NCBI RefSeq assembly: GCF_036365525.1
Contig: NC_090400.1
Location: forward strand, 53,697,663 to 53,761,662
Direction: 5' to 3'
DNA from: Heterodontus francisci
Lineage: Eukaryota
DNA: 64,000 nt
In this document: positions 9,875-54,613 of the stretch, in pieces
Layout: the number at the start of each line of letters is the position of its first letter
Numbering within the stretch: the first letter of the stretch is position 1
Position numbers and translations under genes: made by a program
The notes under the pieces: generated by a model
Told to the model about the DNA's origin: nothing
The model's input: only the letters and a program-made list of their open reading frames with translations
Database searches by the model: none

Positions 9875-11510
9875 TTTTTTTTTCTTTGGCCTCCTTATCT
9901 CGAGAGACAATGGGTAAGCGCCTGGAGGTGGTCAGTGGTGTGTGGAGCAGCGCCTGGAGTGGCTATAAAGGCCAATTCTAGAGTCACAGGCTCTTCCACA
10001 GGTGTTGCAGAAAAATTTGTTTGTCGGGGCTGTTACACAGTTGACTCTCCCCTTGCGCTTTTGTCTTTTTTCCTGCCAACTGCTAAGTCTCTTCGACTCG
10101 CCACACTTTAGCCCCGCCTTTATGGCTGCCCACCAGCTCTGGCGAACGCTGGCAACTGACTCCCACGACTTGTGATCAATGCCACACGACTTCATGTCGC
10201 GTTTGCAGACGTCTTTAAAGCGGAGACATGGACGGCCGATAGGTCTGATACCAATGGCGAGCTCGCTGTACAATGTGTCTTTGGGGATCCTGCCATCTTC
10301 CATGCGGCTCACATGGCCAAGCCATCTCAAGTGCCGCTGACTCAGTAGGGTGTATATGCTGGGGATGTTGGCCGCCTCGAGGACTTCTGTGTTGGAGATA
10401 CGGTCCTGCCACCTGATGCCAAGTATTCTCCGGAGGCAGCGAAGATGGAATGAATTGAGACGTCGCTCTTGGCTGACATACGTTTATTTATTTAGAGATA
10501 CAGCACTGAAACAGGCCCTTCGGCCCATCGAGTCTGTGCCGACCAACAACCACCCATTTATACTAACCCTACAGTAATCCCATATTCCCTATCACCTCCC
10601 TACACTAGGGGCAATTTACAACGGCCAATTTACCTATCACCTGCAAGTCTTTTGGATGTGGGAGGAAACCGGAGCACCCGGCAAAAACCCACGCAGACAC
10701 AGGGAGAACTTGCAAACTCCGCACAGGCAGTACCCAGAATCGAACCCGGGTCCCTGGAGCTGTGAGGCTGCGGTGCTAACCACTGCGCCACTGTGCCGCC
10801 CACGTTGTCCAGGCCTCGCTGCCATAGAGCAAGGTACTGGGGACACACTCGGACTTTTGTGTTCCGTGTCAGTGCGCCATTTTCCCACACTCTCTTGGCC
10901 AGTCTGGACATAGCAGTGGAAGCCTTTCCCATGCACTTGTTGATTTCTGCATCTAGAGACAGGTTACTGGTGATAGTTGAGCCTAGGTAGGTGAACTCTT
11001 GAACCACTTCCAGAGCGTGGTCGCCCATATTGATGGATGGAGCACTTCTGATGTCCTGCCCCATTGTGTTCGTTTTCTTGAGGCTGATGGTTAGGCCAAA
11101 TTCATTGCAGGCAGCCGCAAACCTGTCGATGAGACTCTGCAGACACTCTTCAGTGTGAGATGTTAAAGCAGTATCGTCAGCAAAGAGGAGTTCCCTGATG
11201 AGGACTTTCCGTACTTTGGACTTCGCTCTTAGACGGGCAAGGTTGAACAACCTGCCCCCTGATCTTGTGTGGAGGAAAATTCCTTCTTCAGAAGACTTGA
11301 ACGCATGTGAAAGCAGCAGGGAGAAGAAAATCCCAAAAAGTGTGGGTGCAAGAACACAGCCCTGTTTCACGCTACTCAGGATAGGAAAGGGGTCTGATGA
11401 GGTGCCGCCATGTTGAATTGTGCCTTTCATATTGTCATGGAATGAGGTGATGATACTTAGTCGCTTTGGTGGGCATCCAATTTTTTCTAGTAGTCTGAAG
11501 AGACCACGTC
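9875..11510 (-). mobile_element. RTE-clade LINE (RT plus C-terminal C2H2-like finger), 5'-truncated and interrupted by a SINE
   Basis: ORF 10630-11430: VKQGCVLAPTLFGIFF, LLFADD, EFTYLGS; ORF 9932-10330: RWLGHVSRMEDGRIPK...CNTCGRAC.SRIGLYSHSRRC. Confidence 0.95.
10483..10801 (-). mobile_element. tRNA-derived V-SINE (HE1-like), full length, nested in the RTE
   Basis: Box A TGGCGCAGTGG, box B GGTTCGATTC, V domain GGAGTTTGCAAGTTCTCCC...GGTGCTCCGGTTTCCTCCCAC, (TAAA)n tail; AACGT duplicated at the flanks. Confidence 0.93.
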
Positions 11511-12653: not shown

Positions 12654-14289
12654 GGCAAAGGTTAGAAAAGAATAAGGTTTTAAGCAAGTGAAGGAGGGGG
12701 TGGTGGTTTGGTGGGGAAGAGAACAAAAGGGAAAGTGTATGATCGGGCAGAGGGCAGGAGAGTTTAAATAACAAAGCTGTCCTGGGTCAAAGGCAAAGAA
12801 TGTGTTAATGCTAGCGTGAAAAACAAAGCATTAGTCCAGAGAGAGTGTTAATGGCAGAATAATAAGCAGCTCTGTCCAAAAGTACATGGAAAACAGGCAC
12901 ATGGTTATAAAAATAAAATAAAATGATAAAAAATAGAAAAATATAAAAAAGGCCTGTCATGCTCTGAAATTGCTGAACTCAATGTTCAGTCCACAAGGCT
13001 GTAGAGTGCCTAATCGGAAGATGAGCTGCTGCTCCTTGAGCTTGAGTTGATGTTCACTGGAACACTGCAGCCCGAAGACAGAAATGTGGGAATGAGAGCA
13101 GGGGAGTGTGTTGAAATGGCAAGCAACCGGAATTTCAGAGTCAAACTTTCAGACTGAGCAGAGGTGCTCTGCAAAGCAGTCACCTAATCTACGTTTGGTC
13201 TCCCCAATGTAGAGGCAACTACATTGTGAGCTCCGAATACAGTATACTAAATTGAAGGAAGTACAAGTAAATCGCTGCTTCACCAGGAAGGAGTGTATGG
13301 GGCCTTGGATGGTGAAGAGAGAGGAGGTAAAAGGCAGGTATTACACCTCCTGCAAACTTGTTGCACTCCGTTCTCTCAGGTCTAACCCTAACATTGTGAT
13401 CAAACCTGTTGACAAGGGTTGTTGTTGACAAACCTGTTGTTGTCTGGCGTACTGACCTCTACCTTGCAGAGGCTGAGCGCCAACTCTCAGACACTTTTTC
13501 CTACCTCCCCATGGACCATGACCCCCACTACCGAACATCAAGCCACTGTCTCAAGGACTGTCACTGATCTCATCTCCTCTGGAGATCTTCCCTCTACAGC
13601 TTCCAACCTCCTAGCCCCACAACACTCGACAACCCGCTTCAACCTCCTTCCTAAAATCCATAAACAGGACTGTCCTGGTTGACCCATCATTTCAGCCTGT
13701 TCCTGCCCCACTGAACTTATTTCTTCCTATCTTGACTCTATCTTTTCTGCGCTGGTCTAATCTCTTCCCAGCTACATCCGTGACTCTTCTGACACCCTAC
13801 GTCATTTCGACCCTTTCCAGTTCCTGGCCCTAACTGCCTCCTCTTCAATATGGATGTCCAATCTCTCTACATCTCCATCCCCCACCAGGACAGTCTGACG
13901 GCTCTCTGCTTCTGCCTTGAACAGTGGCCCAACCAGTCCCCATCCACCACCACCCTCCTTGCCATTTCAACAATTTCAGAGCATGACAGTCCTTTTTTTA
14001 TATTTTTCTTTTTTTTTATCATTTTATTTTTTTTTAACCTTGTGCCTGTTTTCATGTGCTTTTGGACAGAGCTGCTCATTACTCTGCCATTAACACTCTT
14101 TCTGGACTAATTTTTTGTCTTTCCCCACTAGCATTAACATTCTCGTTGCCTTTGTCCCATGGCAGCTTTATTATTTAATCTCTCCTGCTCTCTGCCCTAT
14201 CACACACCTTCCCTTTTGTTCTCTTCCCCACCAAACCAACCCCCTCCCCCTTCACTTGCTTCAAACCTAATTCTTTTCAAACCTTTGCC

Positions 14290-33923: not shown

Positions 33924-34612
33924 GTCAGCTGTGGTTCAGTGGATAACTCTTTGGGTCAGAAGGTTTTGGGTTCAAGACCTACTCCAGGGACTTGAGTATA
34001 AAATCTAGGCCGGCACTCCTAGGGCAGTACTGAGGGAGTGCTGCACTGTCAGAAGTGCCATTGTTTGGATAATGTAATGAGAAGCATTTTATGTTGTCCG
34101 ATGTGTGGAGTTCAGTTGATTGAAGATCTCAAACAGGTTTATTAAACAGCTAACAAGTATATTCAGTGCAGAGCTAACCATTTACAGGGTTTGCCTCTTG
34201 GTGTTACAGTTACAGAGTGAGACTGGCATGTAGTCACAAGACTGCATCCTGGTACACAGCTCATTAGCATGCGAAGATCTTCAAGGGATATCACTCTTCA
34301 AGGCAATCACACAACCGATAAAATGTTAAACCGAGGTCCTGTCAGCCCTCTCAGGTACACATAAAAGACTATTATTTCAAAGAAGAGCAGTAGCGTATTC
34401 TCTGATGCTTTGGTGAATATTTATCCCTCAACCAACTCCTAAATCAGATTACCTGGTCATTATCACATTGCTGTTTGTGGGATCTTGCTGTGTCCAAATT
34501 GGCTGCAGCCTTTTCCTACGTTGCAACGGTGACTACACTTCCAAAAAGTAATTAATTGGCTGTAAAGTGCTTTGAGATATCATGAGGTCATGAAAGGCAC
34601 TATATAAATGCA
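33924..34612 (+). mobile_element. DeuSINE (SacSINE1-like) interrupted by a solo LTR
   Basis: Head, GAGGGAGTGCTGCACTGTC, Deu core, TATATAAATGCAA tail. Confidence 0.88.
34073..34316 (-). mobile_element. Solo LTR of the same family as the myc-carrying element
   Basis: Reverse complement matches 52339-52596 (GATTGCCTT.AAGAG, GTACCAGGATGCAGTC, AACTGTAACACC, AATAAACCTGTTTGA, CTCATTACA); 5-bp TSD GATAA at 34068-34072 and 34317-34321. Confidence 0.92.
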
Positions 34613-38230: not shown

Positions 38231-39318
38231 TAGAATTAGAATTAGAACATTACAGCGCAGTACAGGCCCTTCGGCCCTCGATGTTGCGCCGACCTGTGAA
38301 ACCATCTGACCTACACTATTCCATTTTCATCCATATGTCTATCCAATGACCACTTAAATGCCCTTAAAGTTGGCGAATCTACTACTGCTGCAGGCAGGGC
38401 GTTCCACGCCCCTACTACTCTCTGAGTAAAGAAACTACCTCTCACATCTGTCCTATATCTATCACCCCTCAACTTGAAGCTATGTCCCCTCGTGTTTGCC
38501 ATCACCATCCGAGGAAAAAGACGCTCACTATCCACCCTATCTAACCCTCTGATTATCTTATATGTCTCTATTAAGTCACCTCTCCTCCTCCTTCTCTCCA
38601 ACGAAAACAACCTCAAGTCCCTCAGCCTTTCCTCGTAAGACCTTCCCTCCATACCAGGCAACATCCTAGTAAATCTCCTCTGCACCCTTTCCATAGCTTC
38701 CACATCCTTCCTATAATGCGGTGACCAGAACTGCACGCAATACTCCAGGTGCGGTCTCACCAGAGTTTTGTACAGCTGCAGCATGGCCTCGTGGCTCCGA
38801 AACTCGATCCCCCTACTAATAAAAGCTAACACACCATATGCCTTCTTAACAGCCCTATTAACCTGGGTAGCAACCTTCAGGGATTTATGCACCTGGACAC
38901 CAAGATCTCTCTGTTCATCTACACTACCAAGAATCTTCCCATTAGCCCAGTACTCTGCATTCCTGTTACTCCTTCCAAAGTGAATCACTTCACACTTTTC
39001 CGCATTAAACTCCATTTGCCATCTCTCAGCCCAGCTCTGCAGCCTATCTATGTCCCTCTGTACCCTACAACATCCTTCGGCACTATCCACAACTCCACTG
39101 ACCTTAGTGTCATCTGCAAATTTACTAACCCACCCTTCTACACCCTCTTCCAGGTCATTTATAAAAATGACAAACAGCAGTGGCCCCAAAACAGATCCTT
39201 GCGGTACACCACTAGTAACTAAACTCCAGGATGAACATTTGCCATCAACCACCACCCTCTGTCTTCTTTCAGCTAGCCAATTTCTGATCCAAAGCTCTAA
39301 ATCACCTTCAACCCCATA
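38231..39318 (-). mobile_element. Young 5'-truncated CR1 LINE with uninterrupted RT C-terminal frame
   Basis: ORF 38311-39255: SGVPQGSVLGPLLFVIFINDL, KFADDTK, RPHLEYCVQFWSP; (TTCTAA)n tail. Confidence 0.97.
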
Positions 39319-39422
39319 ATAGCATGAAATATATGGGGGTTAATATAAGGGACATTAGGATGAATGTGTTACAGTGAAAATGTTGCTTTGACCAATCTTC
39401 AGTGCATGCCTGGCATTTTTAG

Positions 39423-48690: not shown

Positions 48691-49251
48691 TATAAATACT
48701 CTGACTACAGGAGCAGGTCAGAGGCTGGGAATTCTGCAGTGAGTATCTCACCTCTTGACTCCCCAAAGCCTTTCCAGCATCTACAAGGCACAAGTCAGGA
48801 GTATGATGGAATAATCCCCACTTGCCTGGATCAGTGCAGCTCCAACAGCACTCAAGAAGCTCAACACCATCTAGGACAAAGCATCCCATTTGATTGGCAC
48901 CCCATCCAGCACCTTAAACATTCACTCCCTCCACCACCAGCACACAGAGGCTGGAGTGTATACTTTGTATGATTGCCTTTAAGAGTAATGTCCCTTTAAG
49001 ATTTTAGTAAGTTAATGAGCTGAGTACCAGAATGAGTGACTCGGAGCCAGAGTCACTCTGCAACTGTAACACCCAGAGTAAGGTTCTGTAAATAGTTAGC
49101 TCTGTATTGTATATAATAGTCTAGCTGTAAGTAAACCTGTTTGAGATCTTCAAACAACTGGACTGCACACATCTCATTTATGTTGCATCAGAACACATAA
49201 AAGAACTCATTATATGGTAGCAGCTGTGGTGAGAAGAATAAAGTCTAGATT

Positions 49252-49967
49252 TTGCCGAAAATAGAAACATGTTGTCGAAGCTTTTCGTCTTGCACTCATC
49301 AGGACAATCACAGGAATAACCAATGTAAGGGAAAACAGCAACTTATACTGCATGAGAAGAGTGTGCTGATTGGTTGGCAAGTGAACTCTGATTGGTAGAG
49401 ACGTTGCCATGGAGAATGCACCAATTTACAGTGACTTACAGTTAACTGCCAAGCTTTGTTTAAAAGTTAAACCAGGCAGCTTGACTCTGATTAGTCAAGG
49501 CATTACCCTGAGGAATGAACCAGTGAATGGCTGTCACTTATTTTGTTCAGCTGAAACAGGTGCAATGTTTGCACATATTCTTTCTGTCTGCAAAGAACAG
49601 GGCCCTGTGTATTAATATATGGAGCTTCCAGTACGCGCAAATGCACCACACTGCAAGCCCTACTGACAATCTTAAATTGGTTGCCAGCGTAATTCTTAAC
49701 ACACTGTGGATTATTTAGCAAATGTCCAATTGCGGAATCACATCGAATGTTGGACACTGTGTTTTGAGTTTTGCAAGCATGAGCTGGTTGGGTACAGCCC
49801 GTACCTTGCCCGTTGCAAATAGCAGAAAGGACATGTTGTTTGATATGTTCCGCCAGTCATTGGGACGTCCGGCCTATATACCTAGCATCACACTGGCATT
49901 GAAATTCATTATTACTTTACTCTTTTGTGTGATAGGCAGGACATCATTTTTGCTGCCGTCAACAGGG
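49252..49967 (-). mobile_element. Second Penelope-like family (GIY-YIG plus 3' end) nested in the LTR element
   Basis: Minus strand FQCQCDARYIGRTSQ*LAEHIKQH...SAIGHLLNNPQC...LRVLEAPYINTQGPVLCRQKE; terminal hammerhead. Confidence 0.85.
49272..49307 (-). ncRNA. Minimal type I hammerhead ribozyme
   Basis: TTGTC-CTGATGA-GT(GCAAG)AC-GAAA-AGCT-TC-GACAA: intact core, 5-bp stem I, palindromic AAGCTT stem III. Confidence 0.82.
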
Positions 49968-50377
49968 AAGATACGACTCCTTTCCCAAACTGATAGAGGT
50001 CGGCGCTATTACAGGAAGCATCTGTTTGAAAAATCACAGGAAAACACCAATCTCTGCAGAACATCATCCATGCAGCCTAAGTTTAAAAAAACATTAAACC
50101 ACTCGAGCATGAATAAGAGTTTCCATTCACAAAGCAACAGTAAAAGAAACCCATTAAAACCACTTGAGCGTGAAGAACATAAACAAACACTGAAAAAAGG
50201 TTATTGAACAGCTGTGTAAACAGAGAGGCTTAAGTACTGAAAGCAAGATAAAGCACAGAACTAGCAAACACCTGCTCCTGCCAATCAAAGTAGCTAGTCT
50301 AAATAACAGACAGTTTCTTAAAGAGGAAACAGTGCAGAGTCATAGAACAAGCTTTAAAGCAAAAGAACAGCAGAAAT

Positions 50378-51615
50378 ATGGATACCAAATTTCCCAGCAT
50401 GAACTGGAAGGCCTTGAATTTCCTATCCGAGTTCCAACTGTTCAAACAAAGAATACCATTATTCTTCACAGACTAAATAATTGTAGAACCAGAAAAACAG
50501 GCTGTAAAAATACTAATAGCAGTTGGAAATGAGGGATCACACAGAATCAACACATCTGGACTATCTGACGAGGACCAGAAAGATCCCACAAAGATAAGGA
50601 AAGTGCTAGAAGATCAGCTCCAATTACAAGTGAATTTTATAATTCACTGCCTGGAATTGATGTCTTGACAGGCAACAGCCACAGGAATCAATAGACCAGT
50701 TTGTCAGTGGATGCCATGGTAAAGGCAAAGAAACTGAACTGTCGGACCGAATAATGGAGCTAGTGATGGTATCGACACACCCATTGAAGCGTTTCAGAAA
50801 GACCTCTTGGGGAAAATGAAAGGTCACAGCATTGATGCGCTGCTGGAAGATGGCAGGAAATATGAACCCATTGTAGCTGGACAACAGCACCTGCAAGCAC
50901 TAGGTGCAGCCAACAGTATCGGCACCATAACCAGGTTGAAAAGAGCAAGCAAGCTGTGTGGTAAGTGCGGTCTGTCCCGCTCACAGCGAAAGTGCCCTGC
51001 ATTTCGTGACCAGTGCAAGGCGTGCGGTGCAAAAGGACACTGGGCCCACCTATGCAAGACATCTGACTCCAAAGATACAGCAGAAGCCACAGCAGGACAC
51101 AAACAAACAGAAGACAGGTGCAGCAACAGGGCAACAACAGCAAGAAGAGTGCCAGGGACCTGCGTAAATACAAGCCGATACATGAAATCCACAGCGAAAC
51201 AGACCTGAGACAATCAACCAGAAGACCAACAGGCATTCCACATTGTGAACCTGACACATCACATTGATGAAGTCAAATAACTGGAAGCTTTTGCCACTAT
51301 TAAAATCACGTGCCCAAATAAAGCTGGCAAACATACACTCAAGGTCAAGATTGACACCGGCGCTAGTGCAAATATCCTACCAGTCCGAATACTCAAAGAT
51401 ATGTACCGGAGTCGCTGGAAATCAATGATAAAACCGACAACTGCCAAGTTATCTGCATACAACGGGTCACCCATCCCTTACAGTGGCACACTAACAATGC
51501 AATGCAATTATGGCAAGTTGGCATGGAAACCACAAACATTCTACCCCGTAGACATGAGCGGACCAGCAATGGCAGAACTACCAGAGCGGAAGTACCTCAA
51601 CATCATAACTGTCAA
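50378..51615 (+). pseudogene. Retrotransposon gag-protease (disrupted)
   Basis: Zinc knuckles CGKCG...CPAFRDQCKACGAKGHWAHLC; aspartic protease KVKIDTGASANIL (GAC at 51353); LSAYNGSPIP..GTL; stops and frameshifts. Confidence 0.9.
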
Positions 51616-51676
51616 CAAGAGCATTGCCAAGGGGAAATCTCCAAGAACCAAAACCCGCTTGCAGACTCTGACCAGC

Positions 51677-52204
51677 ATCAAACGGTGCAGGCTGGAAACC
51701 CAGCAACAGCACAACCCAGCGCCTTCACTTCTGCTCTCTAGAGAACAGCACCACAACGAGCCAGAACGGACAGGTATCTCCATGAGATCAAGTACTCTTC
51801 CCCCAACAAGTCCTCAAGCTGGAGCCCCAAGATGTGGAGGATGAGGAGAGGCGAAGGACACCATAGACTTATGGCACAGAAAAAGGCCATTCAGCCCATC
51901 ATGTCTGCGCTGGCTGAAAAAACTAGCTGCACATTCTAATCCCACCTTCCAGCATCTGGTCCATAGCCTTGCAGGTTACAACACTTCAGGTGCATGTCCG
52001 GAAGAGGCAGAGGAGGAATGTCTGTTGGATCTTCGAGATGAGAATGGCAAGGCCTCAAAAGTGGTCATTTTGAGAAAAGCAACAGAGTATGTTAGCAGGC
52101 TGAAGGTAGAGCAACAGAAACTGAATGCAGAGAGGGAGAAACTTCACAAAGAACAGCAGTAGATGCGACACAATCTCCCCGAGCAAGAGTTGTCAAACCA
52201 CTGA
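51677..52204 (+). pseudogene. Captured MYC-family C-terminal fragment (Myc box IV-like, basic region, HLH, leucine zipper); most like the fish mych/N-myc type
   Basis: IKRCRLETQQQHNPA ~ LKRCH...HQHNYAAP; DVEDEERRRT; KRQRRN; CLLDLRDE; NGKASKVVILRKATEYVSRLKVEQQKLNAEREKL ~ NEKA(P/A/S)KVVILKKATEY; contains deletions, a stop and a CR1 insertion. Confidence 0.88.
51862..51995 (-). mobile_element. Short CR1-type 3' tail inserted in the myc basic region
   Basis: GCACAGAAAAAGGCCATTCAGCCCATC motif separates RRRT from (H)VRKRQRRN. Confidence 0.8.
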
Positions 52205-53715
52205 GATGATATACGGACTTTTGAGCCTCTATACTTGTAAATTTTAGAATCTATATTCCGTGTAACTAATTCTGATGTTATCTAATGTTATTTTTTTTAC
52301 TTTTAGCATACGAGACTTATCTTTGGAAAGAAAGGGGATGTTGTACGATTGCCTTTAAGAGCTATATCCCTTTAAGATCTTAATATGCAAATGACCCAAG
52401 TACCAGGATGCAGTCATGTGACTCAGAGCCAGAGTCACTCTGCAACTGTAACACCCAGTGTAAGATTTTGTAAAAAGTTAGCTCTGTACTGTATATAATA
52501 GTTTAGTTGTAAATAAACCTGTTTGAAATCTTTAACCAACTGGACTACACACATCTCATTTATGTTGCATCAAACAACATAAAATAACTCATTAGATATA
52601 CCATCTACAAGATGCACTACAGCAAGTCTCCAAGGCTCCTTCAACAGCACCTTCCAAACCCACGATGTCTACCACCCAGAAGAACAAGGGCAGCAGATGC
52701 ATGGGGAACACCACCACCAGCAAGTTCCCCTCCAAGCCACACACCATCCTGACTTGAACTATATCACCGTTCCTTCACTGTCCCTGGATCAAAATCCTGA
52801 AACTCCTTTCCTAACAGCACTGTGGGTGTACCTACCCCACATGGACTGCAGTGGTTCAAGAAGGCGGCTCACCATCACCTTCTCAAGGACAATTAGGGAT
52901 GGGCAATAAATATTGATCTTGCCAGTGATGCCCACATCCCACAAATGAATTAAAAAAGGCCCAAATTATAAGTTTTTATTTTGTTTAACTTCCTTTTTGG
53001 GACCAGAAAGAGCAGGAGTATTCATCCGTGCTCCACAGGGAAAACTTTGGCCTCCCCTACCCAAACATAAGAGCATGGCGGATGGCACCAACAGCCGACC
53101 TGCCACCTTCCGGCTCTTGGAGACCGCACAACTTTCCTGCCTCTTCCTGCCAACTTGGGGAAGAGATCAGTTGGCAGGATTTAAATGAGGTCAGGGAGTT
53201 CAAGTACCCCCGGCCTCTTTTGTGGAGCTGCGAGTGAGTTTCTAACTCACCTTACAGGAATTGGCCCAGAGTTAAAATGGGGATGATGAATTACTATGAA
53301 TTGGCCCTCTAATTTTTCCACACTTTCCTGTGGGAGTCAATCTCCACCTAAACCGTTCCACTGAGGGTGTGGCTGTGATCACATCACAGCCCTGTGAAGA
53401 ATGAGGGCTGTTAGTTTTCATTCTACCAGAATTTAAAATGGTACATTTCCTTCCTGCTCCTCATTTGCTTTTTCTCTCATAAGAATGGGAAATGAGAGTC
53501 AGATCAATCAGATCTCGGTCATCCAGTTCTTCTTTTAAGAATCTTTTTTCATCTACTCCCTGCTGAATCAGAAATTATCCCAGTTTAAGAACATGAGAAC
53601 ATTGGAACTAGGCACAGTAGTTGACAAGACAGCCCCTTGAGCCTGTGCTGCCAATCAATAAGATCATAGCTGACCTTTAACTTCAACTCCACTTTCCCAC
53701 CTGATCCCCATATCC

Positions 53716-54613
53716 CTTCTCCATTACCCCCACCACCTCGTCCCCATCCCAGGGCACCTTCCCCTGCAATCGCAGGAGGTGTAATACCTGCCCATTTACC
53801 TCCTCTCTCCTCACTATCCCAGGCCCCAAACACTCCTTTCAGGTGAAACAGCGATTTACTTGTACTTCTTTCAATGTAGTATACTGTATTCGCTGCTCAC
53901 AATGTGGTCTCCTCTACATTGGGGCGACCAAACGCAGACTGGGTGACCGCTTTGTGGAACACCTCTGCTCAGTCCGCAAGCAGGACCCTGAGCTTCAGGT
54001 TGCTTTCCATTTCAACACTCCCCCCTGCTCTCATGCTCACTTCTCTGTCCTAGGATTGCTGCAGTGTTCCAATGAACATCAACTCAAGCTCGAAGAACAG
54101 CATCTCATTTTCCGATTAGGCACACTACAGCCTGCCGGACTGAACATTGAGTTCAATAATTTCAGAGCATGACGGGCCCGCATTTTACTTTTATTTTTAG
54201 TTATTTTTTCTTTTTTACATTTTTTACAATTTTTTTTCTTTTGTTCATTTCATTTCATTGTAGTTTGTTCAGTTTGCCTACCCACTTTTTTTTTCATGTT
54301 TGTACTTGTTGCTGTTCAATATTCAGTCGGTTAACACCCTATCTCTACTAATGCTTTATCTTTCAACACACCATAAACATATTGTTTGCCTTTGCTCCAT
54401 GACCTCTTGGTCAGCTATGTGGCCTTGTCCAATCTACACCTTCTCCTTTGTTATCTCTTTCCCCACCCCCGGCTCACTTGTTTATAACCTTTGACATTTC
54501 TTATATTTGTCAGTTCCGAAGAAGGGTCACTGACCCGAAACGTTAACGCTGTTCTCTTTCCACAGATACTGCCAGACCTGCTGAGTGGTTCCAGCATTTC
54601 TTGTTTTTATTTA
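53716..54613 (+). mobile_element. Penelope-like element 3' part with GIY-YIG endonuclease
   Basis: FTCTSFNVVYCIRCSQCGLLYIGATKRRLGDRFVEH...EEQHLIFRLGTLQPAGLN; CCCCATATCC duplicated at 53706-53715 and 54614-54623; hammerhead-like motif at 54512-54548. Confidence 0.92.

Follow-up and report, generated by a model that had tools for sequence, protein, structure and literature searches.

A Dead Ty3/Gypsy-Type LTR Element of a Horn Shark Carries Part of a myc-Family Gene, Probably as a Disarmed Passenger

Introduction

Why do a retroelement protease and a piece of Myc share one open reading frame in the genome of Heterodontus francisci? The question is raised by a 64,000-nucleotide stretch of DNA (NC_090400.1, positions 53,697,663 to 53,761,662 of the forward strand; hereafter the window), in which an earlier note had placed the protease motif DTGA (51353), the start of an open reading frame (MYRS, 51401), and the Myc motif IKRC (51677) in a single frame. 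Indeed, all three lie in the same frame (position mod 3 = 2), which is free of stops from 51281 to 51841. The standard example of Myc capture comes from exogenous avian retroviruses; in the present case, a Ty3/gypsy element seems to have made the capture before spreading through the germ line of a vertebrate.

Results

The Shared Reading Frame

The length of the open run (187 codons) is by itself unremarkable, because 54 of the 6072 stop-to-stop runs in the six frames of the window reach at least 112 codons. Its content is more informative. Residues 2–113 resemble retrotransposon proteases, with 456 matching proteins at E ≤ 0.001 and a top identity of 53%, and 51620–51721 is 79% identical to shark mych, so that, judged by these matches, both the protease and the myc half of the frame are real. 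The similarity to Myc leaves the protease frame near 51745 and resumes in two others (51748–51831, then ∼51831–51858); the last ∼33 codons to 51844 in the protease frame are out-of-frame read-through, and this frame stops short of the bHLH-LZ in the window. The ATG at 51401 lies inside the protease, 3′ of the catalytic DTG, and is therefore not a gene start. Upstream, six in-frame stops, the closest at 51278, separate the protease-myc frame from gag. A search of solved structures with the 187-residue translation returned only chance matches to LRR proteins, and a Pfam scan of 51677–51841 alone gave no match.

Anatomy of the Element

The locus is a dead 3.6-kb LTR element of the Ty3/gypsy type (48964–52596), in which the 3′ part of a myc-family gene takes the place of reverse transcriptase (RT), RNaseH, and integrase. 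All of its features are on the plus strand. Two direct LTRs (5′, 48964–49214; 3′, 52339–52596), delimited by alignment to each other, are bounded by identical five-base target-site duplications, TATAC, at 48959–48963 and 52597–52601; a four-base duplication is also possible, the LTR start being decayed. The LTRs differ at 34 of 252 aligned positions (K2P 0.15). A TGG immediately 3′ of the first LTR opens a candidate primer-binding site (49215–49230), and a polypurine tract of 14 purines (52325–52338) immediately precedes the 3′ LTR. The family is also represented by a solo LTR on the minus strand at 34073–34316, 15 kb from the full element, which has a five-base duplication of its own (TTATC) and shares ∼80% identity with each LTR of the element.

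The decayed gag (50378–51280) holds a double zinc knuckle (50957–51055) and, besides the six stops in the protease frame, several frame changes. Its first ∼90 codons are 49%–51% identical to Gag of the relatives P0125 and P0142, and it is 60%–83% identical to the H. francisci model P0002. The aspartic protease follows at 51281–51619 with its catalytic DTG at 51353, the top match being P0122 (53%, E = 1.5e-29). For both proteins, the sequence matches are strong and the Pfam scores lie under the cut-off (zf-CCHC_3 in gag, E = 0.0019; gag-asp_proteas on the protease region, E = 0.11–0.21). The leader of the element contains, on the minus strand at 49503–49920, a decayed fragment with a YIG motif, presumably resembling the GIY-YIG end of Penelope-like elements; it drew no Pfam match, and the window has no clear second copy of it.

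The mych-derived part begins at 51620. A first segment (51620–51745), carrying the IKRC and QQHN motifs of the MBIV region, remains in the protease frame and is 79% identical to residues 201–234 of H. francisci mych (P0003). The linker and the start of the basic region (51748–51858) are read in two other frames, one of them 79% identical to P0003 residues 246–273 and the third frame of the series containing the stretch DEERRRT. The basic region is then interrupted by a dispersed repeat fragment (51859–51995, ends approximate; blastn matches span 51862–51978) that is one of the 15 copies of repeat family D2 in the window. The remainder of the basic region (51996–52019) has a Lys codon (52002–52004) at the position of the base-contacting Glu of cellular Myc. 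An HLH-matching segment follows at 52019–52189 (Pfam HLH, E = 0.0007; Myc chains in the PDB, E = 5e-5; 70% identity to P0003 residues 313–362).

In another frame, 52162–52224 encodes an RVVKP motif and probably represents the last codons of the element's own pol. A motif of the RVVKP type arose in 22 of 5000 shuffles, and 6 of 19 relatives with at least 700 residues have one in their tails; because the pattern was picked after the data had been seen, the stretch is only suggestive of a return switch from mych into the element. RT, RNaseH, and integrase were sought in the element and not found, and no env-like sequence was seen between the pol tail and the polypurine tract. Further damage consists of two frame changes past QQHN, the ∼135-base repeat that splits the basic region, deletions within the HLH, and a zipper interrupted by a stop. 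With such stops and frameshifts and a repeat in its basic region, the window copy is a pseudogene, incapable of making protein.

The enzymes missing from the window element are present in its relatives, where P0169, P0219, P0221, P0228, and P0259 show the order PR-RT-RNaseH-integrase. Long protease relatives, judged by a domain scan of 14 of the 149 new matches, carry RT_RNaseH_2 and Integrase_H2C2 domains and read Gag-PR-RT-RNaseH-integrase as a single frame, which is the Ty3/gypsy layout. Of the 150 best protease relatives, those not already listed gave no match to Myc motif patterns, and the sole Myc-bearing relative was P0013; on this limited evidence, there is no sign of the chimera outside Heterodontus.

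No host-gene family was matched among the 30 long window ORFs scanned, so the element appears to be intergenic or intronic. Elsewhere in the window, an open 155-codon frame at 53705–54172 (plus strand; GIY-YIG match, E = 0.00066), with an inverted relative near 12915–13334, is probably another Penelope-like repeat, and RT fragments (RVT_1) at 10633–11508 and 38314–39339, both on the minus strand, are probably LINE remnants. Positions 1–∼1000 form a C-rich tandem array (D1) of alternating 12- and 16-base units with a GC skew of −0.53.

Other Copies and the Donor Gene

A search with the 51281–51841 frame gave two matches only, among 71 candidates, both of them H. francisci models. With P0001 as the query, 355 matches were obtained, of which the best 120 include six H. 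francisci "myc-like" models and, adjoining them, the H. francisci "myelocytomatosis oncogene homolog" (mych, P0003), a gene also described in zebrafish (PMC2323570). In a tree of 22 chosen rows, built from the Myc part only and leaving out the broken window copy, the six copies group with H. francisci mych (support 97/96), apart from mych of Carcharodon, Mustelus, Scyliorhinus, and Stegostoma; the capture is thus placed within the Heterodontus lineage. Monophyly of the six copies themselves has a support of just 80/72. The tree identifies mych as the donor and argues against both c-myc and N-myc. Over the captured part, the six copies are 77%–82% identical to H. francisci mych. The Scyliorhinus torazame mych model (P0010) has a ∼21-residue stretch duplicated immediately before its basic region.

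A seventh H. francisci model, P0271, carries another myc piece. It is a stitched model of 1346 residues made of LINE-like and element-derived pieces, the myc fragment among them; its Pfam accessions are of the RING, B-box, and SPRY type, and the model is probably an annotation artefact. The seven models lie on at least six contigs, none of them the mych contig, and the window copy is additional, so that further rounds of retroposition are evident. The other copies are known as predicted proteins, in which introns or frame corrections may hide. The bHLH-LZ homologous to Myc, found in pieces in the window copy, is retained in the models: six keep open frames of 213–325 residues with a Pfam HLH match, and P0013 is open across the entire bHLH-LZ. 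At least six annotated "myc-like" or "N-myc-like" genes of H. francisci are accordingly decaying copies of an element and do not represent an expansion of the myc family.

The Junctions

The earlier note had proposed that the ancestral element made a Gag-PR-Myc polyprotein. Overlapping models and single-ORF relatives support such a frame: gag runs into protease in one frame in P0002, the protease end runs into Myc in one frame in P0001, P0004, P0008, and P0013, and Gag-PR-RT is a single ORF in the relatives. A search for longer fused proteins gave one match among 634 candidates, the stitched P0271, and no protein spanning Gag-PR-Myc. Since aligning Pol relatives together with the copies was uninformative, the junctions were read by anchored comparison. 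In P0004, P0007, and P0008, the protease is followed by the LHL(K/R)E segment that precedes RT in relatives, and the reading then passes in frame into mych at residues ∼121–127, the switch falling at a D-A-x-P-like stretch that is common to both parents at the protein level. From these comparisons, the original capture point is the start of RT, joined in frame to mych ∼121–127. Host mych has an MBI-like motif (residue 40) and an MBII-like motif (QDCMW, residue 100). Both precede the switch, and the captured part lacks them, as the earlier note had supposed; human Myc box coordinates are given in PMC7226237. A partial host coding sequence is thus enclosed by two discontinuous parts of the element, clearly at the 5′ switch and suggestively at the 3′ switch.

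The join in the window (51619/51620, within 51617–51622), to which the earlier note had pointed, is not the point of capture. It is a secondary deletion of ∼120 codons, common to P0013, in which the protease end jumps to mych residue 201 at the same residue position. P0001, P0004, and P0008 carry 83, 121, and 97 extra residues here; the short form lacks these 83–121 residues, including an acidic EEIDVV motif that we take to be MBIIIb-like. The pattern argues for a later in-frame deletion that was itself copied onward and that, starting at the protease end, may have removed a cleavage site. The short join is genomic in the window, and a likely exon boundary falls within the part deleted from the window copy.

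Across the copies, the junction is in frame in P0001, P0004, P0007, P0008, P0013, and the window and out of frame in P0271, where an out-of-frame protease reading is joined to myc by a deletion or a modelled intron. The one-in-three chance of an accidental in-frame join, raised in the earlier note, is not sharpened by this comparison because the copies were seen as protein models, which favor in-frame joins, and because of P0271. If a myc pseudogene fragment had simply landed in or beside a dead element, the common frame would be a local coincidence, for which that chance and the many equally long runs of the window leave room. The recurrence of the same join in P0013, which is only ∼60%–80% identical to the window by segment, and the longer Pol-mych chimeras on other contigs largely refute this account and make it highly improbable.

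DNA-Contact Residues

E-box recognition by MYC depends on His359, Glu363, and Arg367 (PMC10437117). The corresponding triad was counted in 99 proteins, after 22 matches without an organism name had been dropped; P0002 has no bHLH. Every one of the 92 named cellular Myc proteins has all three residues intact. In the copies, the triad is not retained: Glu290 is Lys in all six and in the window, and His286 is replaced by Arg in four of the six. The statement in the earlier note that the truncated Myc could still bind E-boxes is therefore not supported, the base-contacting Glu being Lys in every copy seen. Among 67 conserved positions, 286 and 290, both base contacts, are the only ones with a shared non-host residue in at least four copies; none of the 25 conserved positions of the HLH-zipper has one. 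The element had probably lost canonical E-box binding by the time it spread, and the MAX interface would have been unchanged while the E-box contact was lost. What stands of the earlier interpretation overall is a one-frame Gag-PR-Myc lacking MBI and MBII; E-box binding is not supported, and the window junction is not the capture point.

The loss of these residues also bears on whether the locus could be the fossil of an oncogenic, v-myc-like transducing retrovirus, a counterpart of MC29. The outline is the same, a replication-defective gag-myc fusion (PMC13431497). The backbone, however, is of the Ty3/gypsy type and not retroviral, with no env seen, and the fragment lacks the base-contacting Glu as well as MBI and MBII, the latter of which recruits TRRAP (PMC7226237). 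A tumor-virus origin is thus exceedingly improbable.

Selection and Age

Among conserved positions, the copies differ from mych at 67 of 373, and among variable ones at 142 of 690 (18% versus 21%, p = 0.33). In five shark mych orthologues, a control that left out Pristis and Callorhinchus as distant or partial, the figures are 9 of 335 and 183 of 628. Each of the six copies differs at 15%–28% of conserved sites, compared with 0%–5% in the orthologues. When positions 286 and 290 are omitted, the counts become 57 of 361 conserved and 142 of 690 variable (p = 0.068), a figure with which slight constraint remains compatible; the variable class, however, includes several shared differences that other sharks suggest to be changes of the host lineage. 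Purifying selection was not seen in any copy by the comparison of conserved with variable sites. The stem of the copies is short (0.0097), the tips are long (0.13–0.24), and the host gene has 0.032; tree and site rates fit rapid amplification shortly after capture, with neutral decay thereafter.

The NCBI names suggest that one or more copies are working myc-like genes today, domesticated by the host. Six open frames with a Pfam HLH match would suit such genes, and there is precedent in the KIT-ligand ORFs captured by crocodilian ERVs, which are under purifying selection (PMC4299795). The excess of differences at conserved sites over the orthologues speaks against it, as do the several breaks in the window copy and the absence of extra copies named from other sharks among the best 120 of the 355 matches. 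Domestication is very unlikely.

A date in years was not adopted. At the rate given for the epaulette shark, 7e-10 per generation (PMC10587355), the K2P of 0.15 would, by hand arithmetic, correspond to ∼1e8 generations, which is implausible, and the element is here called just "old."

Discussion

The locus is best explained as one copy of an LTR-mediated retrocopy that was amplified while carrying Myc as a disarmed passenger, an account that we consider probable and for which tolerance suffices. In the lineage of Heterodontus (bullhead/horn sharks), a Ty3/gypsy element would have switched template at the start of RT onto host mych, entering just past Myc box II and returning near the end of the leucine zipper. 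The switch probably took place during reverse transcription on co-packaged mych RNA, as in the retrocopies of PMC5131818. Its product would be a non-autonomous element with a single Gag-protease-Mych frame, containing the C-terminal two thirds of Mych and devoid of RT and integrase, presumably copied by a helper element and translated as a fusion while active. The E-box-contacting Glu would have become Lys prior to the spread onto several chromosomes; one sub-lineage (window, P0013) would then have lost ∼120 further codons in frame, and each copy would have decayed neutrally after insertion. As gag and pol are in one frame, any Gag made brought the Myc moiety along, and the germ line would presumably tolerate an allele dead for DNA binding. 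Among cargoes of this kind, a fragment that lacks both MBI/MBII and the base-contact Glu does the least harm, and tolerance is thus a sufficient explanation.

Positions 286 and 290, as the only conserved positions with shared non-host residues, may nevertheless mean selection, beyond simple tolerance. The active element could have gained from a Myc fragment that dimerised with MAX and did not read E-boxes, damping Myc in germ cells, with the Lys and the in-frame joins being selected. This would account for the restriction of shared changes to the two base contacts, with none in the HLH-zipper, for both junctions being seen in frame, and for the copying of the deleted form in the window and P0013. 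The stem, however, is so short that a single chance change suffices, detection favors in-frame copies (P0271 showing an out-of-frame join or a modelled intron), and the tips lack purifying selection. Such a gain to the element is unlikely. The same doubt attaches to a selected, protease-released fragment binding MAX and not DNA, which would be a natural dominant-negative Myc encoded by the element, v-myc in reverse.

Under the preferred account of a disarmed passenger, the spread of a variant without transactivation boxes and without the base-contact residue is a natural test of how far the germ line tolerates a retroelement that carries a proto-oncogene. The open-access literature yielded no description of a shark Ty3/gypsy element that carries myc, which is weak evidence of absence.

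Comparison with Known Systems

The closest likeness is to LTR-mediated retrocopies (Tan et al., 2016; PMC5131818), in which part of a host coding sequence lies between two noncontiguous portions of an LTR element, with short similarity at the switch points, and which undergo more rounds of copying as non-autonomous elements, often in frame with the parent protein. The word "oncogene" is absent from PMC5131818. The shark element differs from these retrocopies in its cargo, a myc-family bHLH-LZ in frame behind Gag-protease, and in being old, present in at least eight copies, and marked by the common loss of a base-contact residue. Crocodilian ERVs with KIT-ligand or nectin3 (PMC4299795) are likewise a germ-line lineage that captured and amplified a growth-related host gene. 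In these retroviruses the ORFs are separate and evolve under purifying selection, whereas the shark element is a Ty3/gypsy element with a polyprotein fusion that replaces pol and decays neutrally.

Compared with host mych, the copies lack the first ∼125 residues, most have the last ∼8 zipper residues replaced, and the basic region is altered. The c-myc of MC29 keeps its N-terminal boxes and DNA binding. Avian MC29 resembles the shark element in being replication defective and helper dependent and in making a gag-myc fusion protein (PMC13431497); it is an exogenous transforming retrovirus with c-myc, whereas the shark element carries mych without MBI/MBII, has Lys for Glu, and has kept its protease. 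The process of capture is thus already known, and the shark case resembles, in disarmed form, the tumor retroviruses that carry myc.
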